Shown here: piece by piece, positions 1,730 to 36,880 of the stretch
Layout: every line of letters begins with the position of its first letter
Position numbering within the stretch: the stretch's first letter is position 1
Assembly (NCBI GenBank): GCA_001777575.1
Contig: MFEL01000010.1
Location: 84,661 to 148,660, forward strand
Length of the DNA: 64,000 nucleotides
Source of the DNA: Candidatus Doudnabacteria bacterium RIFCSPHIGHO2_01_FULL_46_24
GTDB taxonomy: Bacteria > Patescibacteriota > Doudnabacteria > UBA920 > O2-02-FULL-48-8
Direction: 5' to 3'
The notes under the pieces: model-generated
Told to the model about the DNA's origin: nothing
What the model saw: the letters and a program-made list of their open reading frames with translations, nothing else
Databases searched by the model: none
Program-made: the position numbers and the translations under genes

Positions 1730-1759
1730 GTTAAATAATAATTTACAATCTTTAACTTC

Positions 1760-1790
1760 AATACTACATTACGATATAGTATTGTAGTAA
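1760..1790. promoter_or_regulatory. Imperfect palindromic box (TACTAC-ATTACGATATAGTATT-GTAGTA) downstream of TrpR-like paralog 1; a second copy lies upstream
   Basis: ACATTACGATATAGTATTGTAGTA occurs at 1762-1788 and again at 2259-2282, flanking the gene on both sides. Confidence 0.5.
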
Positions 1791-1796
1791 CCAGTG

Positions 1797-2246
1797 CTAG
1801 CTTCGAGCTGAGCGGCGCTTTCTGCCCTTTTTATAAACCTTGGTTAATTCCTTTGCTGTCCCAACCCAAAATTGCTGCGCCTGTCTTACCTGTCCCGTAA
1901 CCAATCGCCGTTTGAGCTCGCCGGGTTTATGATTAATCTTCCACAAGCGGTCAATTACCAATTTGTAGCCTTCGCCAAAGGATTGATATTGTTCGCTTAA
2001 CTTGGCTATTGTCACCTCGCTCATGTTTAGCTGTTTGCGAATATCAAAGTATCTATATCCTTCGTCGAGCATTCTAATTGCCTCCAAGCGCTTGGAGAGC
2101 ATTTTGATTTCGGTTCTGGTCAAAATGTTTCGGAGGAATTTCCTTACTTCGTCCTTCGTTTCAAGCAAAGTAACCGCCTGCCACAGCTGATTGAGCATCT
2201 GTTCATCACGCTCCAAGGGAAGTTTTTTTCTGGAAATTTTAGTCAT
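1797..2246 (-). CDS. TrpR-like DNA-binding protein (YerC/YecD family), paralog 1
   Basis: The track ORF 1797..2435 has an implausible hydrophobic N-terminal extension. The internal Met (MTKISRKKLPLERDE...) gives about 150 aa with the TrpR/YerC-like core (LSKRLEAIRMLDEGYRYFDIRKQLNMSEVTIAKLS). The other two paralogs also start MTKISRR/MAKFS. Confidence 0.6.
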   Translation of the reverse strand: MTKISRKKLPLERDEQMLNQLWQAVTLLETKDEVRKFLRNILTRTEIKMLSKRLEAIRMLDEGYRYFDIRKQLNMSEVTIAKLSEQYQSFGEGYKLVIDRLWKINHKPGELKRRLVTGQVRQAQQFWVGTAKELTKVYKKGRKRRSARS

Positions 2247-2255
2247 AATTCTTAA

Positions 2256-2282
2256 CCACATTACGATATAGTATTGTAGTAT
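2256..2282. promoter_or_regulatory. Upstream copy of the same box; likely operator in the TrpR-like paralog 1 promoter region
   Basis: Identical 24-nt sequence to 1762-1788, located 10-35 nt upstream of the start codon. Confidence 0.5.
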
Positions 2283-2705
2283 TAGTATAACATATCTTAG
2301 TTTAGCAAGATAAGAGCCGGCATAAATTAATAAAAATTCATCTTGACCAGGCGTTTTGCTTAAACTACCAAAAAGATATAAAATCAAGTCAATACCGGCG
2401 GTACAATTATCTGTGAAGTCACCGGATGATTGCAAGACCCGCCGCCTAGTATTCTAAAAGCACGGAGGAAGCGATTCTAGAACCGCCGCCCTTACCCGAA
2501 TAGGCACGCTCGTGCCGCAAAAATTCGGGCCAAGCGTGCTAGCCGCCTCTACTGACGTTCGTCAGCAAGCGGCTTTCTCTATCCCAATTTCACCATATTT
2601 TACCATTAATTTTTGATGTTCAACCTATCGCTTGAGATAATCGTTCCGCCAAGGCTTTACAAAGCTCAACAAGTCTGTTAAGATTTTTGCTCAAGGAGGA
2701 GTGCT

Positions 2706-2957
2706 TTGGCCTATTCTCATAATAAGAATTGGCGGCTTCGTAACCCTGACAAGCGATACAGCGGAAAAATGAGGTACTACAGGAAACACCGTGACGATCC
2801 TAGTAAGAAAAGAAACTCCGGGCAAAAGTGGGCCATCAACGACATCTACCTGATTACGGCCCCTGATCGACCTTGTGATGTCCAACTGGCTAATCAGCTA
2901 GGTAGATCATTAGAAGCTATACAGGTCATGAGAGCGAAACTTAAAAAACCTATTTGA
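2706..2957 (+). CDS. Small basic protein, possible HTH; TTG start
   Basis: AAGGAGG at 2694-2700 followed by TTG at 2706. C-terminal LITAPDRPCDVQLANQLGRSLEAIQVMRAKLKK looks HTH-like. It is the only plus-strand gene in this neighbourhood. Confidence 0.35.
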   Translation: MAYSHNKNWRLRNPDKRYSGKMRYYRKHRDDPSKKRNSGQKWAINDIYLITAPDRPCDVQLANQLGRSLEAIQVMRAKLKKPI

Positions 2958-2992
2958 ACGGTCAGCCTCAAGGCTAGACCTTTTTTTTTAAG
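2958..2992 (+). terminator. Rho-independent terminator (hairpin GGTCAGCCT..AGGCTAGACC followed by T9)
   Basis: Seen directly: stem-loop followed by tttttttttt immediately after the small plus-strand ORF, abutting the secA stop. Confidence 0.6.
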
Positions 2993-5561
2993 CCAATTTA
3001 GCCATATTTTGCTGGTGTTCCAGCGTGTTCACCAGCCCGCACTTCTTATATTTCTTTCCGCTGCCACAGGGACACGGGTCATTCCTTCCAATATTTTGAT
3101 CTTTGATATTTGAATTTTGATTTTGCGACGGAGTCGCCACCACATCCACCTTAAAAATCGTATAAACCACTTGCTTATCCACTTGCTTAAGCAACTGCTC
3201 AAAAAGCTTAAAGCCTTCATTTTTGAACTCAATCAGGGGATCCCGCTGTCCCCAGCCGCGGAGTCTGACCGAGTCGCGCAGATGCTCCATAGTGTCCAGA
3301 TGTTCTTGCCACAGCGTGTCTATGGAGCGAAGATAAACAAGTCTCTCGAGCTGATGAATTAAATCGTGCCCGAGCTTATCATGTTTGGCCTTATATTCCC
3401 GTTCCGCGATGCTGACCAAATGCGCAGTCAGCTGGTCTGGATTTTTCTCATCCGTCACATCCTCAGGCTTGAGCGGCATAATACTTGCGGCAACTTGATA
3501 TATTTCTTTAATGTCCTGCTTGTCCTCCGAAGCTTTAGCGAAGGAGGAACTAAAGTGAAAATCCACGATCTCCGCGATTTCTTTCTCGATTAAATCCAAG
3601 ATTTTCTGGGACAAATCTTCCTTAGCCTCCAAAAACTCCCTGCGCCTGGCATAGACCACGGTCCGGTGCTTGTTCATGACGTCGTCATACTCCAAAACGT
3701 GCTTGCGCATGTCAAAATTTAAGCCCTCAATCTTGCGCTGGGCGGATTCAATGGATTTGGAAACCAAGCCGTGCTCAATCGGCTGATCCGGAGGAATGCC
3801 AAGCGTATCCATAAGCTTGCCCACCCGTTCGCCGCCGAATAATCTCATCAAATCGTCTTCCAATGAAAGAAAAAACTGCGACTCGCCCGGATCGCCCTGG
3901 CGACCGGACCGGCCGCGGAGCTGGTTGTCGATGCGGCGGCTCTCATGCCGCTCCGTGCCGATGACCGCCAAACCGCCAAGCTCTCTCACTCCCTGGCCCA
4001 AAACAATGTCCACACCCCGGCCGGCGATATTGGTGGCCAGCGTCACCTTGCCCATCTGTCCGGCTGATGCGATGATGTGCGCTTCTTTCTCATGGTTCTT
4101 GGCGTTCAGAAGCTCATGCGGGACACCGGACTGTTCCAAAAGCCGGGAGAGCATCTCGTTCTTTTCAATCGAAATGGTGCCGATCAAAACCGGCTGGCCG
4201 GCTAAATGCTTTTGCTTGACCAGCTGGACCGCGGCCTGAAACTTTCCTCCCACTGTTTTATAAACCTGGTCGGCTAAATCTTTCCTGATCATCGGCTGGT
4301 GAGTCGGGATAACCACGACTTCCAGATTATAAATTTTATGAAATTCCTCAGCTTCGGTTTCAGCCGTGCCAGTCATGCCGGCCAATTTTTTGTACAAACG
4401 AAAAAGGTTCTGGAAAGTGATGGTGGCCAAAGTTTTGCTTTCCTGCTGGATTTTGACGCCTTCCTTGGCTTCAATAGCCTGGTGCAGACCTTCCGAATAG
4501 CGACGGCCGTACATGAGCCTGCCGGTAAATTCATCCACGATCACGATCTCTCCGCTTTTGACTACGTAATTTACGTCTTTTTTGAACAAAGTAAGCGCTC
4601 GCAAGGCGGCATCGGCCTGATGGCGAAGCTTGGGGTCAGTATAAATTTCCTGGCCGAATTTGCGCTCCAGCTTCTCGTTGCCCATGTCTGAATACGCGCT
4701 CTGGCGGTGCTTCTCATCCAAAATGTAATCTTCTTCGGTCAAGCTGGCGGCAAGTTTGGCAAATTCATAATATCGGTCAGTCGGCTCCGTGTCCGGCGCG
4801 GAAATAATCAGCGGCGTGCGCGCCTCGTCAATCAAGATCGAATCGACTTCGTCCACGATGGCGTAATGCAATTCTTTCTGAACCATTTGCTCCTTCTGCC
4901 AAACCATATTGTCGCGCAAATAATCAAAACCAAACTCGTTGTTCGTGCCATAAGTGATGTCTGCCGCGTAAGCCTGCCTGCGGCTGATAGGACGCATATG
5001 CTTAACATCCAAAACCAAGCCTTGGACTTGCGCTTCTACTTGTTTAACTTCTTCCGCTTCCGGCTCATAGGTTGAGTCATACAAAAAAGCCTGCTCGTGC
5101 TGAATGGAAGACACGGACAAACCAAGGTAATGATAAATCTGCCCCATCCACGAAGCTTGCCAGCGCGCCAAATAATCGTTCACGGTAATGAGATGAACTC
5201 CACGGCCGGTCAGAGCATTAAGATACAAAGGCAGTGTCGCAACCAAGGTCTTGCCTTCTCCGGTCTTCATTTCCGCAATCACTCCCTGGTGCAGCACAGT
5301 GCCGCCAATCAACTGGACATCATAGTGCCGCTGGCCGATCGTGCGCTTGGCCGCTTCTCTGACCGCGGCAAACGCTTGGGGGAGAATCTCGTCCAAATCC
5401 AAATCCGACTCTGACTTCCACTCCGCGGTCAGCGCCTTAAGCTCGTCCTGCGATTTTTTCTCAAACTCGGGTTCGAGTGAGTTGATTCTCTCAACCAGCT
5501 TACGATGCTTGCTTACAACCGCCTCATTCGACCCGCCAAAAATTTTGCCAAAGATAGACAT
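2988..5561 (-). CDS. secA: Preprotein translocase ATPase SecA
   Basis: 857 aa with DEAD-like motor motifs and the C-terminal zinc-binding CPCGSGKKYKKC. Confidence 0.95.
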   Translation of the reverse strand: MSIFGKIFGGSNEAVVSKHRKLVERINSLEPEFEKKSQDELKALTAEWKSESDLDLDEILPQAFAAVREAAKRTIGQRHYDVQLIGGTVLHQGVIAEMKTGEGKTLVATLPLYLNALTGRGVHLITVNDYLARWQASWMGQIYHYLGLSVSSIQHEQAFLYDSTYEPEAEEVKQVEAQVQGLVLDVKHMRPISRRQAYAADITYGTNNEFGFDYLRDNMVWQKEQMVQKELHYAIVDEVDSILIDEARTPLIISAPDTEPTDRYYEFAKLAASLTEEDYILDEKHRQSAYSDMGNEKLERKFGQEIYTDPKLRHQADAALRALTLFKKDVNYVVKSGEIVIVDEFTGRLMYGRRYSEGLHQAIEAKEGVKIQQESKTLATITFQNLFRLYKKLAGMTGTAETEAEEFHKIYNLEVVVIPTHQPMIRKDLADQVYKTVGGKFQAAVQLVKQKHLAGQPVLIGTISIEKNEMLSRLLEQSGVPHELLNAKNHEKEAHIIASAGQMGKVTLATNIAGRGVDIVLGQGVRELGGLAVIGTERHESRRIDNQLRGRSGRQGDPGESQFFLSLEDDLMRLFGGERVGKLMDTLGIPPDQPIEHGLVSKSIESAQRKIEGLNFDMRKHVLEYDDVMNKHRTVVYARRREFLEAKEDLSQKILDLIEKEIAEIVDFHFSSSFAKASEDKQDIKEIYQVAASIMPLKPEDVTDEKNPDQLTAHLVSIAEREYKAKHDKLGHDLIHQLERLVYLRSIDTLWQEHLDTMEHLRDSVRLRGWGQRDPLIEFKNEGFKLFEQLLKQVDKQVVYTIFKVDVVATPSQNQNSNIKDQNIGRNDPCPCGSGKKYKKCGLVNTLEHQQNMAKLA

Positions 5562-5652
5562 AAAAGCTTAGTAATTATATCGTTTTTAAGCCAAAAAGAA
5601 AAGGTAAAAAAAAGACGAGAATATCTCGCCTCGAACCATACAGTACTCGCTG

Positions 5653-6300
5653 CTACCACCGCATCGAAAGTCCTCGGTCAATCCGTGCCAGCAGTTGTTC
5701 TCGTTGCGGAAAAGCAGGCATCTTGGCCAAGAATTCCTTCGCCGCCTCAGTCCGACGCTGTGGAACCGAATCAATCACCATTTTCCTTAAATCCCCAACC
5801 ACGCCTGGTATGCGCTTCTCCCACCAATCCAGACTGTGCTGACCGCCCGTGAGTTCGTAACTGAAGAAATAGAACGCCGCCTCTGGATCAAGACGGATTG
5901 CCTGCCGAAACACGCCATGAGCCCAATACTCGCCCTGATAGTGGTCATACATGACCAGGGCCCAATATGGATCAGGGTGCATCGCCTCCAGCAACCTGTT
6001 CTCGACCCACGGCTGGTCCAGGAACGGCGCCACACATCGGAAAGCCTCACGAGGATTTTCGAAGATCTTTTCAGATACAGGCTGGCTGCCTTCGGCGCAG
6101 TTGTCGGGCATCAGCTTGAGCGCCTCGACGCGCGATTCTTCGAGCTTGCGCTGCGCGTTTCGGCTTGTCCTGAGCGCGAGAAAAGCAAAAACTACCAGTA
6201 GTGCCATGGCCAGGACCGTCACAATTCTCGCTCCCCGATCCATTGCCTGATGAACTGTCATACACACTCCTTGAGGTTGTCCAAGCCTAAACTCTAGCAA
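5653..6300 (-). CDS. Hypothetical membrane-anchored protein in a GC-rich island
   Basis: ORF with an N-terminal hydrophobic segment (IVTVLAMALLVVFAFLAL). No recognisable family. Local GC is clearly higher than in the flanking genes. Confidence 0.3.
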   Translation of the reverse strand: MLEFRLGQPQGVCMTVHQAMDRGARIVTVLAMALLVVFAFLALRTSRNAQRKLEESRVEALKLMPDNCAEGSQPVSEKIFENPREAFRCVAPFLDQPWVENRLLEAMHPDPYWALVMYDHYQGEYWAHGVFRQAIRLDPEAAFYFFSYELTGGQHSLDWWEKRIPGVVGDLRKMVIDSVPQRRTEAAKEFLAKMPAFPQREQLLARIDRGLSMRW

Positions 6301-6388
6301 ATCAACAGGAGCTGGTCAAGTCTGCGGTCTGCAGTTCGAAAAAAGCCGAGGCCACTCAAGGGGCGGCCCCGGCAGCACGGCGAGAGAA

Positions 6389-6898
6389 TCAGCGCTTCTT
6401 AGATCCGGTCGCCAGACTGCTCGAGTCCCAGTTGTCCGGGAACACATGAATGTCAAAAACCAGCCGGTACCCGAAGTGCGATACCTCAAGCGTACGCTCG
6501 ACAACCAGTGCCACAAACCGCATCGATCTGAATCCTCCCTGCGTCACGCCTCTGATGAGATCAAGCGCGGAATGGGGCTCCGAACCGTTCCACGACGTAT
6601 CGCCTGATCTCCAGAAGAAGCCCAGCAAGCCTTCGCACACGAGATGGAGACGCTCGTCGTATGCAAATTCCACTTTTCCAAGGCCATAGTGAGTATCCGA
6701 GTATGGAGCCGCCTTCTTCTCCAAATCAAACTTGACTTTGGAGAACCGACGAGCGGTTGCGTGATGGACCTCGGTTGACCACCACTTCTCAACGAACTCG
6801 ATCCTCTTCGCTTGAGATATCTTGGGTGTGGGCCCAAGCCTGCCGCTTAATCCTGCCTTAGTGATCTCATGCCCCCAGGACTGCCAAAGCAGATCCAC
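6389..6898 (-). CDS. Hypothetical protein in a GC-rich island (GTG start)
   Basis: ORF only. A good RBS+ATG lies at about 6936-6953 but in another frame, which hints at a frameshift or gene decay. Confidence 0.3.
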   Translation of the reverse strand: MDLLWQSWGHEITKAGLSGRLGPTPKISQAKRIEFVEKWWSTEVHHATARRFSKVKFDLEKKAAPYSDTHYGLGKVEFAYDERLHLVCEGLLGFFWRSGDTSWNGSEPHSALDLIRGVTQGGFRSMRFVALVVERTLEVSHFGYRLVFDIHVFPDNWDSSSLATGSKKR

Positions 6899-7690: not shown

Positions 7691-7730
7691 AAATAAACAC
7701 CTCAACCACGGTTGAGGTGTTTAGTGAATG
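7691..7730 (-). terminator. Rho-independent terminator of metK (AACACCTCAACC-gtgg-GTTGAGGTGTT then TTATTTTGG)
   Basis: Perfect 11-bp stem followed by a U-rich tract on the minus strand just after the metK stop. The same module recurs at 55243-55283. Confidence 0.7.
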
Positions 7731-7737
7731 GCCGCAT

Positions 7738-8709
7738 TCACTCGTCCCACTTAAAACCGTTGCCAAAATGGCCGTAGCGGGCTGTCTGTTCGTACTGAGG
7801 TTTGCGCAAGTCGAGAAAATCTATGATCCCCTTGGGCGTTAAGTCATAACCCTCAATGGGCATCTCTTTGCCGTCCACAATCACTGTGGCCTGCAAGGGC
7901 TCAGCCTTGCCGATGGCATAGGCCAAATACGCATAAACTTCCTTGGCATCGTGCTTGCGAAGGCAGTCCACGGCAATTTTCCTGGCCATGTAAGCGGCGC
8001 TCCTGTCGACCTTAGTCGGGTCTTTGCCGCTGAAGCATCCTCCGCCCACCGGGATTCTGGGTCCATAGTTGTCAATGATAATCTTGCGTCCGGTCAGTCC
8101 AGTGTCAGCATCAAAGCCGCCAATCTGCCAGTCCCCAGTCGGATTGCAATATATCCCGGTTTTCTCAAGACTTAACTGCCGGTTATTAGCCCATGCCTTC
8201 ACGTCAGCTGTCAGGATTTCTTTGCTGACGTTTTGAAAACTGGCTACAATTGCCGAAATCTGCCCGCTTTGGCTGTCCAAAGTAATCTGAGTTTTGCCGT
8301 CATTTGCACTGCCGTGTTTTTCGAAAATGCTCCTGTTTAATTCACGGGCCAGCATAACTTCCAGCGGCATCAGTTCCGGAGTTTCGCCGCAGGCGTAGCC
8401 GACCATAATACCCTGGTCTCCTGCACCGCCCGCGTCAACGCCGCGCGCGATCTGGGGCGATTGCTCGACGATGTTTACCTGCACTCCATATTTGTTCCCC
8501 AAAAGACGGTGGACAATTTCGCGGACATTGACGTAACCGGAAGTGGTGATCTCGCCCGTGACCGTGATGATGCCATGCCCGCCCATGGTTTCCACGGCCA
8601 CGCGCGAATGCGGGTCTTGCTCTAAGAGTTCATCCAAAACCGCGTCCGAGACTCGGTCGCAAATTTTGTCCGGGTGCAGGGGGGAAACTGATTCTGCGGT
8701 TCTGATCAT
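7738..8709 (-). CDS. metK: S-adenosylmethionine synthetase, compact 323-aa form
   Basis: ESVSPLHPDKICDRVSDAVLD and GGGCFSGKDPTKVDRSAAY motifs. Confidence 0.9.
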   Translation of the reverse strand: MIRTAESVSPLHPDKICDRVSDAVLDELLEQDPHSRVAVETMGGHGIITVTGEITTSGYVNVREIVHRLLGNKYGVQVNIVEQSPQIARGVDAGGAGDQGIMVGYACGETPELMPLEVMLARELNRSIFEKHGSANDGKTQITLDSQSGQISAIVASFQNVSKEILTADVKAWANNRQLSLEKTGIYCNPTGDWQIGGFDADTGLTGRKIIIDNYGPRIPVGGGCFSGKDPTKVDRSAAYMARKIAVDCLRKHDAKEVYAYLAYAIGKAEPLQATVIVDGKEMPIEGYDLTPKGIIDFLDLRKPQYEQTARYGHFGNGFKWDE

Positions 8710-17312: not shown

Positions 17313-18415
17313 ATCACGTTTTCATATATCTTAATCGTATCCTCGGCCGCTTTTTTCCAGCTAAAATGCCGGATCCGGCTTAAGGCCAAATTCGCTAATT
17401 CTTCCCGTTTTTTTCCGTCAGATAAAATGTCCCTTATGACATCAGCCATGTTATCGGCGTTGTTTGGATCAAAGTATTCTGCCCCCTGCTCCATAACTTC
17501 GCGCAGGGTCGAAATGTCCGAACAAGCAATTGGCGTCCCGCAGGCCGCCGCTTCCAACACAGTCAAACCAAAACCTTCAGAGATCGAAGGTAAGACAAAA
17601 AGGTCAGCCGCATTATATAAGTATAGCAAGTCCTCGTCAGAAACCCGTCCCGGCATGATTAATGATTCGTGATACGTGATACGTGATACGTGATCCTTAA
17701 TTTCCGGATAATACAAGTCTGGCTCGCCGGCCAAAACAAGCTGGAAATCTAAGCCCCTCTCCTTAAGTTTATCGAATGCCAAAGCTAAATTGGGCAGGTT
17801 CTTATATCGCCGCCAAACCCCGACATACAATATATAGGGCTTGGAGATGCCGAATTTTTTCGAAACATATTCGAATGCCGCTTGTTTGTCCAGCATTTTG
17901 TAGCTTGGGTTTGCTGCTTCATAAACAACTTCGATTTTGGTTTCTGGAATCCTAAAAAATTTCGCTACTTGATTCTTGGTTGACTGGGAGACAGTAATAA
18001 TTTTCTTCGATGAACGAAGCGCGTTGAACATAACGAGGTTGTAAGCTAAGCGCTTAAACCATCGCGATTTTTTCTTGCCCGGGATCAAAGTGTGAGTCAA
18101 GTCGTGGATAGTCACGACAAAAGATTTGCGGTACAAAATCGGCACATTAAAATGCGGGAAGTGGACCAAATCAAGCTTTTCAGCTCTTAAAATTTGCGGC
18201 AGATGGAACTGCTCGGCGTATGAATAATGCGGAATGCCCGTGATGACGATCTGGTGGCCATATTGTCCGTAGTCAGCCGACTTATCAGCTTCTTTGAAGA
18301 ACAAAACATACTGATTACGCCTGTCCTGCCGTAAAATTTCATGCGAAAGCTCCGAGATATATCGATCTATCCCCGACCCCCCTCCCAGCATCCTCAAATC
18401 CAAGCCAATCTTCAT
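17309..18415 (-). CDS. Glycosyltransferase family 4
   Basis: EGFGLTVLEAAACGTPIACSD (EX7E-type GT4 motif). Contains a heptanucleotide tandem repeat at 17668-17694. Confidence 0.8.
   Translation of the reverse strand: MKIGLDLRMLGGGSGIDRYISELSHEILRQDRRNQYVLFFKEADKSADYGQYGHQIVITGIPHYSYAEQFHLPQILRAEKLDLVHFPHFNVPILYRKSFVVTIHDLTHTLIPGKKKSRWFKRLAYNLVMFNALRSSKKIITVSQSTKNQVAKFFRIPETKIEVVYEAANPSYKMLDKQAAFEYVSKKFGISKPYILYVGVWRRYKNLPNLALAFDKLKERGLDFQLVLAGEPDLYYPEIKDHVSRITYHESLIMPGRVSDEDLLYLYNAADLFVLPSISEGFGLTVLEAAACGTPIACSDISTLREVMEQGAEYFDPNNADNMADVIRDILSDGKKREELANLALSRIRHFSWKKAAEDTIKIYENVI
17668..17694. repeat. Heptanucleotide tandem repeat (CGTGATA) of about 3.9 copies inside the GT4 coding sequence
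   Basis: cgtgatacgtgatacgtgatacgtgat, which encodes HVSRITYH. Confidence 0.8.
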
Positions 18416-19530
18416 AGTTTCCCCTTATTCCCTTTATTCCCCTTAACCCCATTATACTTTTCCTCCACAAAAGCTTTTATCTTTTCTTGAAAAATTTTTT
18501 TATCAAACTGTAAAGCATGCTGGCGGATAATCTGATGGTTGTATTTTTTGGGATCAAAAGTCTCAAGTTTTGTTTTCAAAGCTTCCGGTGTTTGCTGGCT
18601 AAAAAACTCACCAGTAATGCTTTCTTTGACGGTTTCCAAAGCTCCACCGGCGCGATATGCGATCACCGGAGTGCCACAGGACTGGGCCTCAAGTGGCATA
18701 ATGCCGGCATCTTCTTCTGCCGGAAAAATAAATGCCAGGGCTTCGGAATATCTTTGCCTCAATTCCTCATCCGATATCCTACCCAAAAATTCTATGTTAG
18801 AACGGGCCAGTTTTCGCAACCGTCCCGAATCGGTTCCTGAACCCGCGACTTTCAGCGGCAGTCCCAGGTCGTTGAAAGCGCGAATCACCAGCTCTATTTT
18901 TTTATAAGGTTCAATCCGGGAGGCCACAAAAAAATAATTTTCCTTTTCGCCATGCGGATGGAAGAGTTCCGTGTCGACCGGCGGTGAAACGACTATGGAG
19001 TCACGACCGTAGTATTTTTTTATTCTGCGCTGAACATTGACAGAATTGGCAATGAAATAATCCGGCCGCTTGCTGGCCTTGTAATCCCAGCGCTTCAAAA
19101 ACGGCAGGATTGCCCGCGCGCCCCATTTTGCATAGGCTGGATACGGCTGAGAACTGATGTAATCATCAGACTCAGTCCACAAAAACCGCGTAGGGGTGTG
19201 GCAGTAGCTAACGTGCAGTTTGCCTTTTGTCTGAACTCCCTTGGCAAAAGATGAAGCGTCGGAAATCACCACGTCGTAATCCTCAAAATTGAATCTCTCG
19301 ACGGCGAATGGCATCAGCGGCAACAGCCAACGGTGGTGACTGTGGGCAAACGGCATACCATCGAGTAAGCTTAAATGTTTTTTATAAGCTTCAAAAATGC
19401 CGAATGTCTTCCCCCGGTCATAAATCAAAACGTGGACCGTGGCTTCCGGCCAAATCTCCAAAAAATTCTGCAAAACTCTCTCCGCCCCTCCCAACTGATT
19501 GAGAAACTCATGCACCAAAGCTATTTTCAT
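18412..19530 (-). CDS. Glycosyltransferase family 4
   Basis: MKIALVHEFLNQLGGAERV N-terminus typical of GT4. A 4-nt overlap with the downstream gene suggests translational coupling. Confidence 0.8.
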   Translation of the reverse strand: MKIALVHEFLNQLGGAERVLQNFLEIWPEATVHVLIYDRGKTFGIFEAYKKHLSLLDGMPFAHSHHRWLLPLMPFAVERFNFEDYDVVISDASSFAKGVQTKGKLHVSYCHTPTRFLWTESDDYISSQPYPAYAKWGARAILPFLKRWDYKASKRPDYFIANSVNVQRRIKKYYGRDSIVVSPPVDTELFHPHGEKENYFFVASRIEPYKKIELVIRAFNDLGLPLKVAGSGTDSGRLRKLARSNIEFLGRISDEELRQRYSEALAFIFPAEEDAGIMPLEAQSCGTPVIAYRAGGALETVKESITGEFFSQQTPEALKTKLETFDPKKYNHQIIRQHALQFDKKIFQEKIKAFVEEKYNGVKGNKGNKGKL

Positions 19531-19561: not shown

Positions 19562-19594
19562 ATACTTGCATACGGGACAGTATGAAAGTGTTAT
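19562..19594. promoter_or_regulatory. Inverted-repeat box CTTGCATAC-GGGACA-GTATG(a)AAG downstream of paralog 2
   Basis: Near-identical copy of the upstream box, with one mismatch. Confidence 0.5.
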
Positions 19595-19986
19595 AACCGC
19601 CCACCCTTGTACCATAGATTCCTTCGTTCCAGCCGGTTCTGTCTTTCCGTTCGCTTTTGTTGAAAAATTCTTTCTAACTCTAATAGCTTTTGTTCGGCGG
19701 CTCTAAATCCCTTGCCAGCCCGCTCCAGAATGTTGCTGACCGTGGAAATGGTTCGTTCGGTTACCTTAAGATGATTCATGATTGATTGATAAGTCTCACC
19801 AGCCAATAGCCGATGGACAATTTCCAGTCGTTTGGCAAACATCTTGTATTCTGTATGCGTAAACAAATCCTTAAACAGTAGTTTTATTTCTTCTTTGTCT
19901 CTGATCATGGCAAAAATTGACCAGAGGTTACTGACATAATTACCCATGAGCTCGGGGTCAACAGGCCTTCTCGAAATTTTTGTCAT
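19591..19986 (-). CDS. TrpR-like DNA-binding protein (YerC/YecD family), paralog 2
   Basis: Internal start MTKISRRP...; core FAKRLEIVHRLLAGETYQSIMNHLKVTERTISTVS. The track ORF extends 18 codons further upstream. Confidence 0.6.
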   Translation of the reverse strand: MTKISRRPVDPELMGNYVSNLWSIFAMIRDKEEIKLLFKDLFTHTEYKMFAKRLEIVHRLLAGETYQSIMNHLKVTERTISTVSNILERAGKGFRAAEQKLLELERIFQQKRTERQNRLERRNLWYKGGRL

Positions 19987-19995: not shown

Positions 19996-20046
19996 GTTTA
20001 ATGACTTCGCAAGTATACTTGCATACGGGACAGTATGCAAGTATTA
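19996..20046. promoter_or_regulatory. Upstream operator-like region: GCAAGTATACTTGC palindrome overlapping CTTGCATAC-GGGACA-GTATGCAAG
   Basis: Perfect inverted repeats seen directly, immediately upstream of the paralog 2 start. Confidence 0.55.
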
Positions 20047-21987: not shown

Positions 21988-22362
21988 CTTTAAGTAAGCG
22001 AGCAGTCGCCCAGCCCCAGTTTGCAAAAACTGGAGCTGGGAGGAAAGTCCGAACACGTTTGTTGGATTGAGTCTCATGAGTTAATTCAGCATCAGGTAGC
22101 GGGTAACGCCCGCCAAAGGGTAACCTTAGAGTTGCGAACAGAAACGACCCGGTTAAGTCCGGCTGAAACGCGCTAAATACTTACCTGACAGTGCAATGTC
22201 GAATAGGTCCTGTACCGGAGCGAAAGCGACTGGTACCAGGGCGGGTAGACAGCTTGAGCCTAACAGCAATGTTAGGCCTTAGATAGATGATTGCTTCCCC
22301 AGCTCCAGTTTGCAAAAACTGGAGCTGGGTCAGACAGAATTCGGCTTACAGCTTGCTTAAAG
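21988..22362 (+). ncRNA. rnpB: RNase P RNA (bacterial type)
   Basis: P4 5' strand GGGAGGAAAGTCCGAACAC and P4 3' strand ACAGAATTCGGCTTACAG. A 12-bp P1 stem forms between 21988-21999 (CTTTAAGTAAGC) and 22351-22362 (GCTTGCTTAAAG). GGGTAACGCC and ACAGAAACGACCCGG elements are present. Confidence 0.8.
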
Positions 22363-22367
22363 AGCAT

Positions 22368-26579: not shown

Positions 26580-26597
26580 AACTTTATGAACTTTCAA

Positions 26598-28457: not shown

Positions 28458-28476
28458 TCTTAAGCGTATTCTAGCA

Positions 28477-31175: not shown

Positions 31176-31187
31176 ATGATTGACTAA

Positions 31188-32396
31188 TTACCTCAACAAC
31201 TCCAAGGCTTTGTCCATTTGGGGATCACGGTCAGCTTCGATGTCTTCTCTGGTCATCTCAACTTTGATGTCCGGCTCCAAGCCGTTTTTGTTAATATCCC
31301 GCCCTTTTGGCGTGCGCCATTTGCCGGTGGTGATTTTCAAATCCGAGCCGTCTTTCATAAGGTTAAGCTCCTGCACCGAGCCTTTGCCAAAAGTTTTATC
31401 GCCAACCAATGTTGCCTTCTTATGATCCTGCAGCGCCCCGGCCAAAATTTCCGCAGCCGAAGCCGAGCCGCCGTTTATTAAAACCACGGTTTTTAACTCT
31501 TTCAGCCTAGCCAACCCGCTTGATGGATAAGATTTCTCCTCGTCATTAAACCGAACTTCTTTGACCACAACTTTCCCTGAATCCACCCAATTCGAGGCGA
31601 TCTCGATGCTGGTCTCCAAGTATCCGCCCGGGTTATTTCTCAAATCCACAATCAGTCCGTCATAATTGCCGGCCATGACCACATCCACCACATGATCAAA
31701 CAAGCCTTTGGTATCGTCCCCAAAACGATTTAATTTGATAATGCCAATCTTTTTCCCGTCAATCTCGTTGGTTTCGAATTTCAAGCTTTTGATCTCGATG
31801 CGGGCGCGCTGAATAATTTTCTCTTCCGGCTGCCGCTCATCTTTATGCAAAATGCTCAACGTGACTTCGCTGCCGGCAGGGCCGCGGATTTTGGACACTG
31901 CCTGGTCAACTGTCAGTCCGTTGGTCGGCTCGCCATTTATGGCTAATATCCCATCTCCGGGCAGAAGGCCGGCTTTCGCCGCCGGAGTGCCTTCCAGAGG
32001 CGCTATGACCACGAGCTGGTCATTTTTGATGCCAATCTCCGCGCCGATGCCATTAAAACTCCCGGAAAGTTCTTCATCGAATTCTTTCGCTTCTTTCGGA
32101 TCAAGGAAAACCGTATAAGGATCACCAACGGCCCTGACCAATCCGGCAACTGCGCCATATAAAAGCTCCTGTTGGTCAAGCGGTCGGTCCACATATTTCC
32201 GGTTAAGCAAATCCAAAGTCTCCCAAAGCAGCGAGTAATCCCCGTTGGTGGGAACATTGCCGCGCTGGATGGTGATGTTGCTGCCCTCAAGCCTAATCTT
32301 TTGACTACCAACGCCATAGCCAATACCAAACACCAGCCCCAAAATAAGAACTGAGGCAATTAAATTGAGACTTTTTTTCTGGTCCATTATTGTCAC
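31188..32396 (-). CDS. ctpA: Carboxyl-terminal processing protease (peptidase S41, PDZ-containing)
   Basis: N-terminal TM, PDZ region, and catalytic GGSASAAEILAGALQD. Confidence 0.85.
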   Translation of the reverse strand: MTIMDQKKSLNLIASVLILGLVFGIGYGVGSQKIRLEGSNITIQRGNVPTNGDYSLLWETLDLLNRKYVDRPLDQQELLYGAVAGLVRAVGDPYTVFLDPKEAKEFDEELSGSFNGIGAEIGIKNDQLVVIAPLEGTPAAKAGLLPGDGILAINGEPTNGLTVDQAVSKIRGPAGSEVTLSILHKDERQPEEKIIQRARIEIKSLKFETNEIDGKKIGIIKLNRFGDDTKGLFDHVVDVVMAGNYDGLIVDLRNNPGGYLETSIEIASNWVDSGKVVVKEVRFNDEEKSYPSSGLARLKELKTVVLINGGSASAAEILAGALQDHKKATLVGDKTFGKGSVQELNLMKDGSDLKITTGKWRTPKGRDINKNGLEPDIKVEMTREDIEADRDPQMDKALELLR

Positions 32397-32443
32397 TTTA
32401 ACAAATTATATCTCGCAAGTAAAATGATAGTCCTTAATAGACG

Positions 32444-32472
32444 TTGACAAACATTTATGGCAGTTTTATACT
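32444..32472 (+). promoter_or_regulatory. Consensus sigma70-type promoter TTGACA-17nt-TATACT reading into a GC-rich non-coding island
   Basis: TTGACA at 32444-32449 and TATACT at 32467-32472 with a 17-nt spacer, followed by AAGGAGG at 32486-32492. Confidence 0.5.
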
Positions 32473-33126
32473 CGTTTTATCACACAAGGAGGTACCAATA
32501 GCCCGTCGTCACCACCGTTACCCTCTGCGGCGCTCGCGATCGCTCTATCGTTACTGGATCGCCCGCCGCGCGCTCGTGGCCGTTCTTCTCTGTCGCCGGA
32601 GGTGCAACGCTTAGTTCGGCAAGCCTAGCAAGCTTGCGTGGCCTGTAACAGATCCATCAAGATGAAGGAGGTCTGGCATGGCCCGCATCACGCTTGACGG
32701 TTTCGGCCCCGAGGTACGGCCGCCGTGATCTAACTTCCTCTTCAGGCTCCGTCCACGAGACCAATGGCCTGATGGTTGTGAACAGCCTGTAGCTGTTCCA
32801 ATTTCGGCAGTGGCACAGCGCTGCATCAGTCCGTTGCCTCAGACGCAACAACCACGGATTTCGTGAAAGGAGCAGCTATAGCCAGCTAACCCTCCTCAAC
32901 TGGCGAACACTGAACAGCGCGAGCCCGAGCCTCGACTCGGGCGACCAAATCGGCTGCCACTGGGCGGCCGAAGGCAACTGCCTTGGACAGACTTAAGAGC
33001 ACGAACTAAGTGCTGGACTGAAGTCCGGGACAGGAAGCCAAACGACGATGGGAAACCGGGGGTAGGAGCAACCGACGGCACAAGCTGCCATCAACCGCTC
33101 CTCCCCCCATCCCTCTCTCAACGTTC

Positions 33127-33978
33127 TCAATGGACGCTTTTTTTGTTTCTAAACAAATTCACGACAAGAACCAAGAACATTCGCAGATTTATACCAAGAT
33201 AAACCAGCTGGTTAAAAAGCCGGTTATATTTTTGTGCGTAATGCTTGCGGTAAAAAATTTTCATGGCATCATGCGCCAACTTGATGGTACGAAACGGAAC
33301 CAATTGTGCTGAACCGTATTTGTAATGCGTAATCACGACCTGGGGATAATACATTACCTTGTACCCGGCTTCCTTGACGCGCCAGCACCAGTCCAAATCC
33401 TCGCCATACATGAAAAAATCCTCGTCGAGTAATCCGATTTGGTCCATTACGGATTTTCTGATCATCAGATATGCACCCATGACTGAATCAACTTCGGTTT
33501 CCTGGTCAATAGGCCTCGTGATATTGTAATTACTGAATTTTCGCAGTCCAAACAAGCGCAAAAAAGCATTCCGGGGATTGGGAAATTTCCTGCGACAAGC
33601 TTCATCTAATTCCCCATTTGGCAGCAAAACTTTGCAGCCCATAGCCCCGGCTTCCGCATGCAAGTTCATGTATCTGATAGACAGATCAAAAGTATTGGAC
33701 TTAACTTCTGTGTCAGAGTTCAAAAGCAATGAATATCGTCCTTGGGCAAGGCGCAGGGCCGCGTTATTCCCTTTTGAAAATCCCAAATTCGCGTTATTTT
33801 CAATCAATTTCACTTCCGGAAATTCCGCCCCGATCATTTCCTGGCTGCCGTCTTGCGACTCATTGTCCGAAACTAAAACCTCAAACTGAAAATTCGTATG
33901 CGAAGCAAACACCGACTTCAGACATTTTCGCAGAAGATCTTTGGTATTGTAATTAAGAATAATAATTGTTAAATCCAT
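33127..33978 (-). CDS. Glycosyltransferase family 2
   Basis: MDLTIIILNYNTKDLLRKCLKSV...DNESQDGS (DxD region), from the internal start. The track ORF extends 12 codons upstream. Confidence 0.75.
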   Translation of the reverse strand: MDLTIIILNYNTKDLLRKCLKSVFASHTNFQFEVLVSDNESQDGSQEMIGAEFPEVKLIENNANLGFSKGNNAALRLAQGRYSLLLNSDTEVKSNTFDLSIRYMNLHAEAGAMGCKVLLPNGELDEACRRKFPNPRNAFLRLFGLRKFSNYNITRPIDQETEVDSVMGAYLMIRKSVMDQIGLLDEDFFMYGEDLDWCWRVKEAGYKVMYYPQVVITHYKYGSAQLVPFRTIKLAHDAMKIFYRKHYAQKYNRLFNQLVYLGINLRMFLVLVVNLFRNKKSVH

Positions 33979-34028
33979 GATATTATATAAGATGAATCTG
34001 GATACTTTTGCCAAGGAGGAAAGGATAC

Positions 34029-34322
34029 ATGCACTCAGGCATGGTCCCGCGCTTGACGCCGATCGGGTCTGAAATCCAAACTATGATCGACCGTGCCGCA
34101 TTGGCTCCCGTGGTCGATCTGACACTAAGCGTCTTGGATGAACTGGCCAAGTGGCACCGACACTACTTGGAATACCTGCGATACTATGACCAGAGAAAAG
34201 CAGCTATGGCCGAAACTCTGGCCTTTTACAAGACGTTGAAGATCCGGGTCTGCCCACTAGCCATCCATAAGAAGATCAAGCGAATTATTGCGGAGTTGTC
34301 CGCGATACCCCTTAAACCCTGA
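34029..34322 (+). CDS. Hypothetical protein (GC-richer, plus strand)
   Basis: AGGAGGAAAGG RBS at 34014-34024, then ATG at 34029. No recognisable family. Confidence 0.35.
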   Translation: MHSGMVPRLTPIGSEIQTMIDRAALAPVVDLTLSVLDELAKWHRHYLEYLRYYDQRKAAMAETLAFYKTLKIRVCPLAIHKKIKRIIAELSAIPLKP

Positions 34323-34338
34323 TGCCGTAAAGCTCTTC

Positions 34339-35349
34339 CTAGCCTCGGTGCAAAACTGCGGCTCTTTTTTTTAATATTCTGGGAACTTGTCGTAACAACA
34401 GGGGAATCACTTTTAATGTACTAATCTCAAACAGCAGTATATACCCAAGCATGGCGATTTCCCGAACGATAAAAAACGGCAGCCACCGCAACGGGGCATT
34501 TTTAATATACATCAAAATGTGGTTCTTGTAATTTAGTTGCCGAACAACAGGTGAAAGCTGCTTGTGGTGCTTGATAAAATTCCAGACTTTCAGATAACCA
34601 CCCCTGGATGAACCGGCTGCCCGACCGTGATAAGCCACCGCTTCCGGCACGTAAACGTTCAGAAGCCCCGCGCGGTTCAAGCGCCAGGACAAATCCACGT
34701 CTTCCCAGTAAGACCCAAAATCTTCATCAAAGAACTCACACAAATCATCTTCTCCCCTTGCGGGAGAAGATGTCGCCCCAGCGACAGATGAGGGGGAACA
34801 ATACTTCACAGCATCCAAGGTGTTTCGCCGATACATAGGCCCTGCACCGCTGACGCCAAAAACCTTCAAGGTTCGACCTTGATCAAATTGGCCTTGATCA
34901 ACTTGGTTCTGGCCCCGATCACGCCCTCGGCCTGACACTGACATTACAACCCCAGTTGAATCTATAATACCGGTCTTTTGGTTATGCTCGAAATCATAAC
35001 GCAAAAGTTTCCCGGTTGCCGCAGCTATCTTGGGGTCTTCAAAAGCTTTAAGCATTTTTTCGATATAATCAGGCTCCAAAATCAAATCCGGATTCACAAG
35101 CTGGATAAATTCGCCGGAAGAATTCTTTATCCCCAAATTGTTCCCTCCGGCAAACCCAAGATTTTTTCCAGGATCCAAAATCTTAACCTGTGGATAATCC
35201 TTTTGAAGCATTTCCCTGGCCCCGTCATCAGCATTGATCACCGTAATCACTTCCAAGTCTTTGTGAGTCTGCCCCAAGACCGCATCCATCACTGGCTTAA
35301 GATATTTCTTGCTGTTCCAAAGGATAACAATTACGCTAACTTTTGGCAT
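34339..35349 (-). CDS. Glycosyltransferase family 2
   Basis: MPKVSVIVILWNSKKYLKPVMDAVLGQTHKDLEVITVINADDG... from the internal start (approximate to within 1 nt). Confidence 0.75.
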   Translation of the reverse strand: MPKVSVIVILWNSKKYLKPVMDAVLGQTHKDLEVITVINADDGAREMLQKDYPQVKILDPGKNLGFAGGNNLGIKNSSGEFIQLVNPDLILEPDYIEKMLKAFEDPKIAAATGKLLRYDFEHNQKTGIIDSTGVVMSVSGRGRDRGQNQVDQGQFDQGRTLKVFGVSGAGPMYRRNTLDAVKYCSPSSVAGATSSPARGEDDLCEFFDEDFGSYWEDVDLSWRLNRAGLLNVYVPEAVAYHGRAAGSSRGGYLKVWNFIKHHKQLSPVVRQLNYKNHILMYIKNAPLRWLPFFIVREIAMLGYILLFEISTLKVIPLLLRQVPRILKKRAAVLHRG

Positions 35350-36235
35350 TTCGTTCGAGATATTTAATGCCGGTTGCAAATTTCTTTTCGTCCTGATTAT
35401 CGATGCCATGAAACAGATCTACCAAGGCGCTTACGTTCCAAAAAAACATCAATTTTTTCTTGAGCATGCCAGGATTCGGATGCTGATAATATTGCAAAAA
35501 CTCATCCAGAAAATCCGGGGTAAAATCATCGGGATCAACCATCCAGCGGAGATCCAAATCAGGATCGGAAATTGCAATATCGCCGAAATCTATTATTCCC
35601 TCAATTTTCTGGTTGTCCCAATTGTAAATTATATGGTCCGGACTGAGGTCTTGGTGCACCAAAACTGCGGGAGATTCAAACTCGGCAAGTTCCTGAAAAT
35701 AAAACCTAAATTGGGATTCCAAATAGCCGATCAAACGCTGCGGTATTCTGCCTTGAAGCTCGGGGAGACGCTGATGCTTTTTTGTGTAAATTTCTTTTGA
35801 GGTTTCTTCCCATGCTACGCACTGCCGCGCTACATCAAGAGGGAAACTGTGCAGCTTTGAGACAAAATCCGCCAAATCCTTAGCCGCCCTTGTCTTGGCG
35901 GAAGCTGAAAGCGTCCCGAAAAGATCCGGCTTCAAAGGAACCCCAACTATCTGCGAGTAGCCCACAAACGGCAGATCCTTGTGCTTGCCCACGTATTGAA
36001 AATTGGGAATCGCTAAATTGAAAAAATCCTGCAGCTTAGGCATCAAGCATATCTCGGCTTGTATTTGCTTTATTAAATAGTCGCGGCCATCTTGCGGAAA
36101 TCGAAACTCTAAACCCCCATTCGCCAAAAAAGCAAAGTTATCCCACCCTTCGCCTATTTTCTCAATGCTTTTAACCTTAAGGCCGGAAAAGTTTTCTTCG
36201 ATAACTTTTTTATATTCCTCAATTCCCGTAAGCAT
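35336..36235 (-). CDS. Aminoglycoside-phosphotransferase-like kinase (APH/choline-kinase fold)
   Basis: VLVHQDLSPDHIIY (Brenner HxDhxxxN motif) and IDFGD. Confidence 0.65.
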   Translation of the reverse strand: MLTGIEEYKKVIEENFSGLKVKSIEKIGEGWDNFAFLANGGLEFRFPQDGRDYLIKQIQAEICLMPKLQDFFNLAIPNFQYVGKHKDLPFVGYSQIVGVPLKPDLFGTLSASAKTRAAKDLADFVSKLHSFPLDVARQCVAWEETSKEIYTKKHQRLPELQGRIPQRLIGYLESQFRFYFQELAEFESPAVLVHQDLSPDHIIYNWDNQKIEGIIDFGDIAISDPDLDLRWMVDPDDFTPDFLDEFLQYYQHPNPGMLKKKLMFFWNVSALVDLFHGIDNQDEKKFATGIKYLERNAKS

Positions 36236-36246
36236 AAAATTTTAGT

Positions 36247-36283
36247 AAATACTAAAATACTGTAAAGTATTTAAGTATTGTAA
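36247..36283. promoter_or_regulatory. Inverted-repeat box AAATACT-GTAA-AGTATTT(AAGTATT) downstream of paralog 3
   Basis: Identical to the upstream copy. Confidence 0.5.
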
Positions 36284-36804
36284 TTACTCGCTAAAAGCTT
36301 ATCTAATTCCGAATATAACTTGCGCTTAGCACCCAACTTCTCCAAAATTTCTTTCATCTGGCGTTTTTCTTTCTGGGAAGACGACTTTGCCCAGTGCTCC
36401 AGCATGATCTGCGGCCAGAAGTACATCGGGTACTTGCGTTTGAGAGCTGATAATCTTACCGGCTTTTCCGCTTCGCCTAAATTCTTTCTTTTTTGCCTTG
36501 TTCTCTCCAAAACCAGCCTGTATCCTTCTCCCGACTGCTGCGTCCAATGGTTTACCCGGGCAATAGTTGGCTCGCTCACCTTCAACGCTTCTCTGATGTT
36601 CTGATACGTCTCGCCGTTGAGCAGTAGTTCGGCGATCTTAAGCCTCTTGGCAAGCATTTCCATTTCCTGCTTGCCCAAAAGGTCTGTGAGCAATTGCGCG
36701 GCCTCACGCGTATTTTGAATCGCCGCAATAGCTGTGCACAAACTCATAATCATTTCCTGAGTATCTTTATAACTCAATTTTGCTTTCAACGAAAACTTGG
36801 CCAT
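36271..36804 (-). CDS. TrpR-like DNA-binding protein (YerC/YecD family), paralog 3
   Basis: LAKRLKIAELLLNGETYQNIREALKVSEPTIARVN core. Confidence 0.6.
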   Translation of the reverse strand: MAKFSLKAKLSYKDTQEMIMSLCTAIAAIQNTREAAQLLTDLLGKQEMEMLAKRLKIAELLLNGETYQNIREALKVSEPTIARVNHWTQQSGEGYRLVLERTRQKRKNLGEAEKPVRLSALKRKYPMYFWPQIMLEHWAKSSSQKEKRQMKEILEKLGAKRKLYSELDKLLASNYNT

Positions 36805-36816
36805 ATAATTACTTTA

Positions 36817-36853
36817 GCAATTTACTTAAATACTGTAAAGTATTTAAGTATTT
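36817..36853. promoter_or_regulatory. Upstream copy of the paralog 3 box (AAATACTGTAAAGTATTTAAGTATT)
   Basis: Perfect 7-4-7 inverted repeat immediately upstream of the start codon. Confidence 0.55.
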
Positions 36854-36880
36854 TTACTTCAAGAAATATTCAATCAATTT

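Follow-up and report, generated by a model that had tools for sequence, protein, structure and literature searches.

Three TrpR-like regulator genes in a Candidatus Doudnabacteria genome lie between paired 28-bp boxes that are probably their cognate operators

Why should each of three small regulator genes in a single genome segment be enclosed by two copies of its own inverted repeat? The question arises in a 64,000-nt stretch of Candidatus Doudnabacteria, a member of the Candidate Phyla Radiation (CPR, or Patescibacteria); we refer to this whole stretch as the window, and coordinates in it count from its first letter. An earlier note on this DNA had described three TrpR-like (YerC/YecD) genes, each lying between its own boxes at both ends. 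CPR bacteria account for a large share of bacterial diversity, and to our knowledge their gene regulation is almost entirely undescribed. Here we find that the six boxes are very probably binding sites of the TrpR/HisR-family proteins encoded beside them. The full mechanism that we propose, in which each box is a cognate operator for tandem dimers and controls both the regulator and the next gene, appears reasonably likely.

A repeat finder placed six segments of 28–30 nt (repeat family D3) in one common register, and all six share a scaffold, TACTnnnnTAC-N6-GTAnnnnAGTA, in which two 11-nt arms surround a 6-nt centre (11-6-11, or 28 bp). A fuller form of it reads (T/C)ACTnnnATAC-N6-GTATnnnAGT(A/G). 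Scanning the window with this scaffold at up to two mismatches returned six matches where shuffled sequences predict 0.01, and allowing three mismatches returned the same six (0.54 expected). All of them flank the window's only three TrpR-like open reading frames (ORFs). Outside the boxes, a search for single 11-nt arms gave just one 1-mismatch match in the window, at 42106, and no solo box, lying away from a regulator, was found in the 64 kb. The boxes comprise three arm types, ACA, TGC and TAA, which diverge at positions 5–7 and 22–24 and in the 6-nt centre; it was right to say that the boxes of the three genes differ, but they do so as variants of one 28-bp scaffold.

All three genes are read from the minus strand, so it is the box at higher coordinates that precedes each regulator (1U, 2U and 3U), and the lower-coordinate box (1D, 2D and 3D) is found between the regulator stop codon and the ATG of the next gene; the upstream and downstream labels had originally been swapped. 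The two copies of a pair, previously described as identical, are near-identical (26/28, 26/28 and 27/28 positions for pairs 1, 2 and 3), and both differences between boxes 1U and 1D fall in the gene-proximal arm. Their limits, first given to within a few bases, are corrected in Table 1 to the exact 28 bp. The extra palindrome reported beside paralog 2, GCAAGTATACTTGC, is indeed present at 20009–20022, where the first 7 nt of box 2U abut an inverted copy of that outer arm.

Some of these boxes also contain promoter-like sequences. A promoter scan passed boxes 3U and 3D only, reading on the gene strand TTTACA (the box centre)-17 nt-TAAAGT at 3U and TTTACA-16 nt-TAAAAT (10/12 matches) at 3D. Box 2U, when read by eye, offers a weak sigma-70-like TTGCAT-17 nt-TATACT that the scan did not flag. 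We considered a fixed promoter element within the box and rejected it: the −35/−10-like hexamers fall in differing parts of the box according to type, and no single promoter geometry can be defined.

Table 1. Regulator genes, the genes that follow them, and the boxes, with their positions in the window.
Feature	Position	Strand	Description
Paralog 1	1797–2246	minus	TrpR/YerC-like, 149 aa; recognition helix starts MSE-V78-TI
Paralog 2	19591–19986	minus	TrpR/YerC-like, 131 aa; recognition helix starts VTE-R78-TI
Paralog 3	36271–36804	minus	TrpR/YerC-like, 177 aa; recognition helix starts VSE-P79-TI
Box 1U	2254–2281		Precedes paralog 1, its end 7 nt from the ATG; gene strand TACTACAATAC-TATATC-GTAATGTGGTT
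Box 1D	1762–1789		Begins 7 nt past the paralog 1 stop; ends 32 nt before the maf ATG (1729)
Box 2U	20016–20043		Perfect 11-6-11 palindrome TACTTGCATAC-TGTCCC-GTATGCAAGTA (gene strand), 29 nt before the paralog 2 ATG
Box 2D	19563–19590		Directly after the paralog 2 stop; ends 32 nt before the first GT4 ATG (19530)
Box 3U	36823–36850		Perfect palindrome TACTTAAATAC-TTTACA-GTATTTAAGTA (gene strand), 18 nt before the paralog 3 ATG
Box 3D	36250–36277		Overlaps the final 7 nt of paralog 3, with 14 nt between its end and the ATG (36235) of the APH-like kinase
Outer half-arm GCAAGTA	20009–20015		Abuts box 2U, sequence as read on the plus strand; possibly an additional half-site
maf	1163–1729	minus	Maf-like nucleotide pyrophosphatase (PF02545, 145 bits), gene after module 1; presumed target of box 1D, by position
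GT4	18412–19530	minus	Glycosyltransferase, gene after module 2, heading a GT4-GT4-murG-like array; presumed target of box 2D, by position
APH	35336–36235	minus	APH-family phosphotransferase, gene after module 3, with a GT2 gene next in line; presumed target of box 3D, by position

The arrangement is not confined to the window. When one genome per species was scanned with a degenerate pattern, 41 loci with relatives came up, 33 from Patescibacteria-type metagenome-assembled genomes and 8 from Firmicutes (loci fetched for comparison carry L-numbers such as L004 or L007). Both boxes were present in 26 of the 33 CPR loci at up to three mismatches, five further loci were recovered when the locus's own box served as the query, and the final two end at the gene, so that box-gene-box is found in 31/31 evaluable CPR homolog loci. 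The eight Firmicutes loci, which encode YerC/HisR proteins of 100–106 aa, have no box and no flanking repeat, and carry a single TTTC-N6-GAAA site within their own promoter. Pooling all loci yielded 74 distinct TrpR-like genes, 51 with both boxes, 15 with one (often at a contig end) and 8 with none.

Two side observations concern these loci. The Firmicutes YerC/HisR genes (L008, L012, L013, L017, L020, L022, L029 and L041) share a conserved promoter, TTGCTT-17 nt-TAAAAT, with a TTTCCAGTGTGAAA palindrome in its spacer, and the gene next to them, itself conserved, begins MAMDGIALGAVIHEL. Separately, contigs from two independent Logan assemblies start exactly at the upstream box (L202 at position 2, box 2U; L209 at position 3, box 3U); box palindromes may break assemblies, in which case such modules could be under-recovered.

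Among close relatives the modules are stable. Strains sharing an identical GT4, APH or Maf protein with the window are represented by 24, 24 and 19 contigs; every distinct place shown has the module, the boxes are unchanged in 19/19 fetched strain-level loci, and no presence or absence of a module was seen among the 67 contigs. The earlier note had looked to close relatives for loss of the flanking copies, and in every close relative sampled the module is kept. Orthologs at greater distance keep it in other settings. The paralog 1 ortholog in L004 (78% identical) has the matching arm type and a next gene other than maf; the paralog 2 ortholog in L024 (72% identical) has other neighbours, yet its box arms and centre are identical; and paralog 3 orthologs at 60–65% identity precede CofD-like, DedA/GT2 or rmlBCDA genes. 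At L042, a paralog-3-like ortholog (60% identity) carries another palindrome, AGTACAATAGTTT...AAACTATTGTACT, on both sides (5950–5985 and 6528–6560), the layout being retained although the site architecture has changed.

The distances within the unit are also characteristic. Between the end of the upstream box and the regulator ATG the median is 18.5 nt (range −9 to 130), the downstream box lies a median of 1 nt from the regulator stop (70% between −8 and +8), and a further 32 nt (median; range 9 to 144) separate its end from the next ATG; a start codon is found some 0–50 nt from each box. The previous gene's stop lies a median of 16.5 nt from the upstream box, a looser link than that between the regulator stop and the downstream box. 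From box to box the median is 551 bp, and a repressor gene between like sites about 550 bp apart recalls lambda OL/OR. The two boxes might loop the DNA to autoregulate the enclosed gene only, leaving the next gene untargeted, and the C-terminal helical region of paralog 3 (see below) could mediate higher-order assembly. Box spacing has no helical phasing (Rayleigh p = 0.2–0.9 for periods of 10–10.7 bp, 0.075 at 11 bp), a test that is uninformative at about 550 bp, where phasing matters little.

We turn to the proteins between the boxes. All three surpass the cut-off of the Pfam model PF01371 Trp_repressor (50.4, 44.9 and 56.6 bits for paralogs 1, 2 and 3; cut-off 27), and paralogs 1 (56.0 bits) and 3 (53.6 bits) likewise surpass that of TIGR02531 yecD_yerC (42.2 bits), below which paralog 2 falls (36.4 bits). 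Pairwise, they are just 30–31% identical, and paralog 3 matches a Candidatus Doudnabacteria protein at 100% identity. Searched against all six-frame ORFs in the window, a profile of the three detects no fourth copy (the next best match has E = 1), and elsewhere it matches 4426 clusters at 50% identity (E ≤ 1e-3) from all phyla, Firmicutes HisR included. The CPR proteins carry a C-terminal helical extension beyond the TrpR-like core; paralog 2 is a short version of a common 163-aa type, and in paralog 3 the extension covers residues 118–173 of an AlphaFold 2 (AF2) model. That model, a monomer of the sole paralog modelled, has a predicted local distance difference test score (pLDDT) of 79 and an all-helical TrpR-like core, with a helix-turn-helix (HTH) made of helices 67–74 and 78–91, the latter being the recognition helix. 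Foldseek searches with it returned the YerC/HisR-like structures 3KOR, 3FRW and 3G1C as best matches (for 3FRW, a template modelling (TM) score of 0.88–0.90 normalised to target length and a root mean square deviation of 1.5 Å), followed by E. coli TrpR in a tandem half-site complex (1TRR, TM score 0.74). The regulators would represent an expanded CPR branch of the TrpR/HisR family.

The recognition helix and the box arms vary together. A logo of 70 boxes, displayed in gene orientation, has invariant A2 C3, T9 A10 C11, G18 T19 A20 and G26 T27, variable positions 5–7 and 22–24, and a centre that is pyrimidine-rich on the gene strand. Aligning the start of the recognition helix as V-T/S-x1-x2-T-I, where x2 is helix residue 2, revealed a number of correspondences: x2 = H accompanies TGC/TGT arms in 8/8 cases, across the 163-aa and 177-aa subfamilies; x2 = R accompanies TTCAT or TGCAT arms, with x1x2 = [A/S]R matched to (A/C)TTCATAC (4/4) and ER to TTGCATAC (2/2, paralog 2 included); helix EKP is matched to TTGCTTAC (3/3); PV or PP at x1x2 goes with TATA(A/T)TAC (4/4); and x2 = G goes mainly with TTCAAT or TTCCAT (16/19). 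Mutual information (MI) between x2 and the box is 0.98 bit at position 5 (null 0.33), 0.80 bit at position 6 (null 0.29) and 0.61 bit at position 7 (null 0.16), with permutation p ≤ 0.0005, and is weak for the neighbouring residues x1 and x3.

On a neighbour-joining (NJ) tree, H and R each arise in separate clades with the same arms. Moreover, the clade linked to a glycosyltransferase cluster has four arm types, and the helix and both boxes changed together each time. At L146/L153 and L095/L157 the upstream and downstream arm types differ, yet each box is still a perfect palindrome, which points to selection on symmetric binding, beyond recent duplication alone. Together, the arm/x2 covariation, the 31/31 CPR loci and the retention in sampled close relatives back the earlier proposal of a cognate site for each protein. 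We suggest that x2 (V78, R78 and P79 in paralogs 1, 2 and 3) reads the variable triplet at box positions 5–7, and that the paralogs stay orthogonal in this way.

Because an 11-nt arm pair could equally fold as an 11-bp stem with a 6-nt loop, the boxes might instead act as RNA hairpins (terminators, or stabilising or processing signals) at the ends of a small mRNA. A T-run does follow box 2D on the gene strand, and a terminator scan flags box 2U on the plus strand. The arm pairs that depart from Watson-Crick pairing, 90 in number, have no G·U bias (22 GT vs 25 AC), however, and the T-run is absent from most downstream boxes, which together make an RNA-hairpin role unlikely. Conservation of the AC, TAC, GTA and GT positions is a matter of sequence, beyond pairing; Rfam gives only RNase P in the window; box orientation can flip; and the covariation with the HTH recognition helix would go unexplained. 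We hold this alternative to be very improbable.

The binding-site reading also offers an account of the length of the box, which may consist of two overlapping 20-bp (7-6-7) palindromes of the HisR/TrpR type, at positions 1–20 and 9–28, with an 8-bp stagger. Half-site motifs are found at the matching places, ACT at 2–4 and 10–12, YGT at 17–19 and AGT at 25–27. By analogy with E. coli TrpR on its operators, two dimers might then occupy each box in tandem. If so, the centre holds the inner half-site triplets and would for that reason be specific to each group. Inner and outer triplets are alike at 1.27 of 3 positions, compared with 0.98 of 3 by chance (p = 0.0002), which lends weak support to the tandem arrangement.

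Set out in full, the proposed mechanism assigns a separate task to each box. The upstream box, over the regulator's own promoter or 5' end, would mediate autoregulation; the downstream box, judged by its position at the regulator stop and before the next gene, would place that gene under the same control. The unit would then constitute a self-contained operator-regulator-operator switch within a co-directional gene array. Occlusion of the promoter or transcription start, repressing the regulator and the next gene alike, may be the most economical way for it to work; binding, repression rather than activation, tandem dimer occupancy and the ligand are inferred, whereas the analysis shows the fold and family, the scaffold, the conserved layout, the covariation of protein and box, and the intergenic placement.

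Boxes also occur away from regulators in other genomes. A metagenome scan for two arm classes (TACTKSMATAC-N6-GTATKSMAGTA) identified at least 118 loci, with 127 boxes among the matches listed. Of these listed boxes, 124/127 have perfectly palindromic arms (chance, 1/8); 35 have a TrpR-like ORF no more than 150 nt away, 59 are solo, and 30 are too near the end of their locus to call. Among the same matches, 89% of boxes lie outside crude gene calls even though 78% of the sequence is coding (p = 8e-59), and the neighbouring genes are very diverse. In addition, L021, L033, L034 and L120 contain gene trains with the regulator first and a same-type box in front of each gene. Such trains and the solo boxes indicate that sites are used away from the regulator, which counts against DNA looping for the enclosed gene only and leaves us regarding that explanation as quite improbable. 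In our reading the solo boxes would be trans targets. At L045, three boxes of three arm types share one 150-nt intergenic region (8122–8274) before an RmlD-like gene, which suggests combinatorial control by several paralogs, and a further solo box lies in a second intergenic region (1540–1567).

Same-type boxes at many unrelated metagenome loci (the 59 solo boxes of 127 among the matches listed) are what one might see if they were a generic intergenic repeat, similar to repetitive extragenic palindromic (REP) elements or miniature inverted-repeat transposable elements (MITEs), or mere chance matches unrelated to the genes they flank. The earlier note had named boxes at unrelated loci as a sign of this kind. 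Solo boxes do occur, but they are sparse, mostly outside genes and palindromic in their arms, unlike a generic repeat. Their density is low: a 553-kb contig has only two exact matches, both with the same centre. The viral contigs used as a negative control for the generic scaffold behave differently, with 32 matches, mostly single and mostly without palindromic arm triplets, of which two loci are clusters of loose matches in apparent tandem repeats; no TrpR-like ORF is near any of the 32. In the window, moreover, six matches against 0.01 expected all flank the three regulators. The distribution of solo boxes is that of a transcription factor with few trans targets and not that of a REP-like repeat, and we find the generic-repeat explanation hardly credible.

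The unit's position varies in the conserved Bac_transf-GT4a-GT4b cluster. In the window, L018, L021, L023 and L028 it stands before GT4a, whereas L007 and L016 have it between GT4a and GT4b. The junctions left empty measure 63 nt in L007, and in other genomes the genes abut or overlap. The whole unit is gained or lost together between genera and fixed among strains; in so far as related genomes either have it complete or lack it altogether, the alternative of small duplicated cassettes raised at the outset finds some support. Strings resembling AAnTAT flank the insertion in L007 and L016, and we rejected them as a target-site duplication at GT4a/GT4b: this is a single event, confounded by coding and ribosome-binding sequence, and is uninterpretable.

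Two further observations were made at such junctions. In L023 a solo box whose arms are of another type, CACTTCGATAC-TACGTC-GTATCGTAGTG, lies at 4648–4675 within the 3' coding end of GT4a, about 80 nt before the GT4b start, the junction that holds the whole module in L007 and L016. Between same-type boxes, L033 (2361–2941) has a peptide deformylase gene (def, 168 aa) where L034 (3462–5493) has a 647-aa ORF; the flanking genes are homologous on both sides, and this looks like cassette-style gene replacement.

These comparisons raise the possibility that a tyrosine (Xer-like) recombinase uses the boxes as its core sites, the unit being a small mobile or shufflable cassette, akin to the pdif modules of Acinetobacter plasmids or to integron cassettes, and the TrpR-like protein its cargo or an accessory DNA-binding factor. 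The 11-6-11, 28-bp dimensions fit, as does an asymmetric centre almost always identical in the flanking copies, and some boxes (L011, L032, L025) have hybrid arms. The unit comes and goes as one piece on either side of GT4a, paralog 3 orthologs at 60–65% identity lie in wholly different neighbourhoods, other single genes are bracketed by same-type boxes (with def in L033 exchanged for the 647-aa ORF in L034), and the downstream box is tight to the regulator stop. One host recombinase would want one consensus, however, whereas three arm types occur in 64 kb and track the adjacent HTH helix. Excision or integration should leave one site, yet empty sites are box-free; the centre flips between flanking copies at several loci, which would give inversion rather than excision; the 67 strain-level contigs show no presence/absence polymorphism; and what lies between the boxes is almost always the same gene family. 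On this evidence we consider recombinase sites rather improbable.

A related and still tentative idea, which we think unlikely though worth stating, is that the box-gene-box unit is a plug-in regulatory cassette, minimal and possibly mobile, of one HTH protein and two of its sites. It would insert whole into co-directional operons, even between translationally coupled genes. With its own outward-facing regulated promoter, it might cause essential downstream genes to depend on it. Its 11-6-11 boxes might also serve recombination, and the identity of their centres would then be maintained by gene conversion or recombination from one box to the other.

Several results weigh against our preferred reading of the boxes as cognate operators of regulator and next gene. 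Firstly, the next genes are unrelated housekeeping genes (Maf, APH, GT4, FtsQ-type POTRA, Ham1, enolase, GltX, inositol monophosphatase, def, Fpg, SDR and LepA, the last from N-terminal sequence only), which is odd for ligand-sensing pathway repressors. Secondly, no box was found at the corresponding empty junctions of the glycosyltransferase cluster (L007, L018, L023, L028 and the window), so the downstream "target" operator comes with the regulator and is not part of the target gene. Thirdly, the 6-nt centre is more strictly alike between the two copies of a locus than the arms are, and in L120, L163, L038 and L036 it is reverse-complemented between copies; neither centre conservation nor centre inversion is predicted by a simple dimer-operator model. 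Fourthly, the promoter-box geometry is heterogeneous (box end −9 to +130 nt relative to the ATG), and no single repression mechanism can be read from it. Lastly, the covariation tests ignore phylogeny, and the NJ tree was built on about 100 aligned residues.

A few other features of the window deserve mention. The gap between secA and box 1U (2283–2987) is about 700 nt, unusually long given the compactness of the genome; its longest ORF encodes a basic protein of 83 aa (2706–2957, plus strand), and neither a tRNA nor an Rfam match at E ≤ 1 was found in it. An RNase P RNA of class A (21990–22364, plus strand, 119.6 bits) is the sole plus-strand feature noted in that part of the minus-strand array, and a 32-nt repeat pair (22009–22040 and 22298–22329, family D6) falls within it. 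A minus-strand ORF of 1563 aa (49734–54425) has long GGnGGn runs on the plus strand, which make the coding strand Pro-rich, together with three 250-nt repeats (52966–53872) that are about 70% identical; it possibly encodes a large surface protein. Finally, two 29-nt hairpins, AAACACCTCAACC...GGTTGAGGTGTTTA (7695–7723 and 55245–55273), are 90% identical, lie 47 kb apart and have a terminator-like look.

Full-text literature searches on YerC, YecD or TrpR in Patescibacteria, CPR or Saccharibacteria found no account of the module or of CPR TrpR-like regulators; the one relevant paper was on Firmicutes HisR. We class the system as a known kind, a putative autoregulated HTH repressor with a palindromic operator, and as new in its many orthogonal paralogs, its operator-gene-operator packaging and its proposed double-length tandem site. 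With 4426 matching clusters across all phyla, Firmicutes HisR among them, this looks like a large regulator family. Since each gene brings its probable operator along in duplicate, genome sequence alone reveals the candidate binding sites, which could provide a protein-to-DNA recognition table relating helix residue 2 to box positions 5–7 and a route towards regulon prediction in uncultivated organisms. The family would also provide dozens of natural, mutually orthogonal predicted repressor/operator pairs (about 150 aa and 28 bp), potentially for synthetic biology, and would widen TrpR/HisR proteins from single amino-acid repressors to multi-paralog local switches. If true, the cassette idea would add a new way of inserting regulation into operons.

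Among known systems, the closest is HisR (= YerC) of Firmicutes, a TrpR-family protein of fewer than 100 aa that is usually single-copy (PMC9413887). It represses in an L-histidine-dependent manner from a 20-bp operator, cacTTTA-N6-TAAAgtg, before his or histidine-transport genes, and controls its own gene in roughly half of the genomes; that study was confined to Firmicutes, Actinobacteria, Proteobacteria and Synergistetes (PMC9413887). The CPR proteins belong to the same Pfam family, their closest solved structures (3G1C, 3FRW and 3KOR) are HisR/YerC-like, and the HisR operator, like the CPR boxes, is a palindrome around 6 central nt, framed on the outside by cACT...AGTg. By contrast, the CPR proteins have 131–177 aa with a C-terminal extension and number three in 64 kb, their box is 28 bp long, lies on both sides of the gene and has paralog-specific arms, and their neighbours (maf, GT4, APH) are unrelated to histidine metabolism. 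E. coli TrpR, which recognises GNACT half-sites at 8-bp spacing (restated in PMC9413887), shares the fold and the ACT/AGT half-sites with 8-bp stagger, and is itself autoregulated; it differs in that the half-site spacing within a putative CPR dimer site is of the HisR type, 7-6-7, and in that one TrpR serves several trans operons, in contrast to the local paralog set seen here.

Three more distant systems resemble the unit in layout. In the lambda immunity region, cI lies between OL and OR, which loop over a long range, likewise a repressor gene between its own operators governing outward and own transcription; lambda has divergent promoters and tripartite operators over 2.4 kb, whereas the CPR units are co-directional with one 28-bp box per side, and the likeness is one of analogy only. 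The pdif modules of Acinetobacter plasmids bracket small gene modules, whose position differs between replicons, with 28-bp sites. Xer/dif and pdif sites share with the CPR boxes the 28-bp length, 11-nt arms and 6-nt centre. Unlike them, CPR boxes come in several arm types within one genome, which vary in step with the HTH protein that they enclose; direct orientation prevails among the boxes, and empty sites are box-free. REPtrons, RAYT transposase genes flanked by cognate REPs, differ in having tens to hundreds of REPs per genome and an HUH nuclease, whereas CPR boxes are few and their protein is without a catalytic domain; the two systems are alike in that the palindromes covary with the encoded DNA-binding protein.

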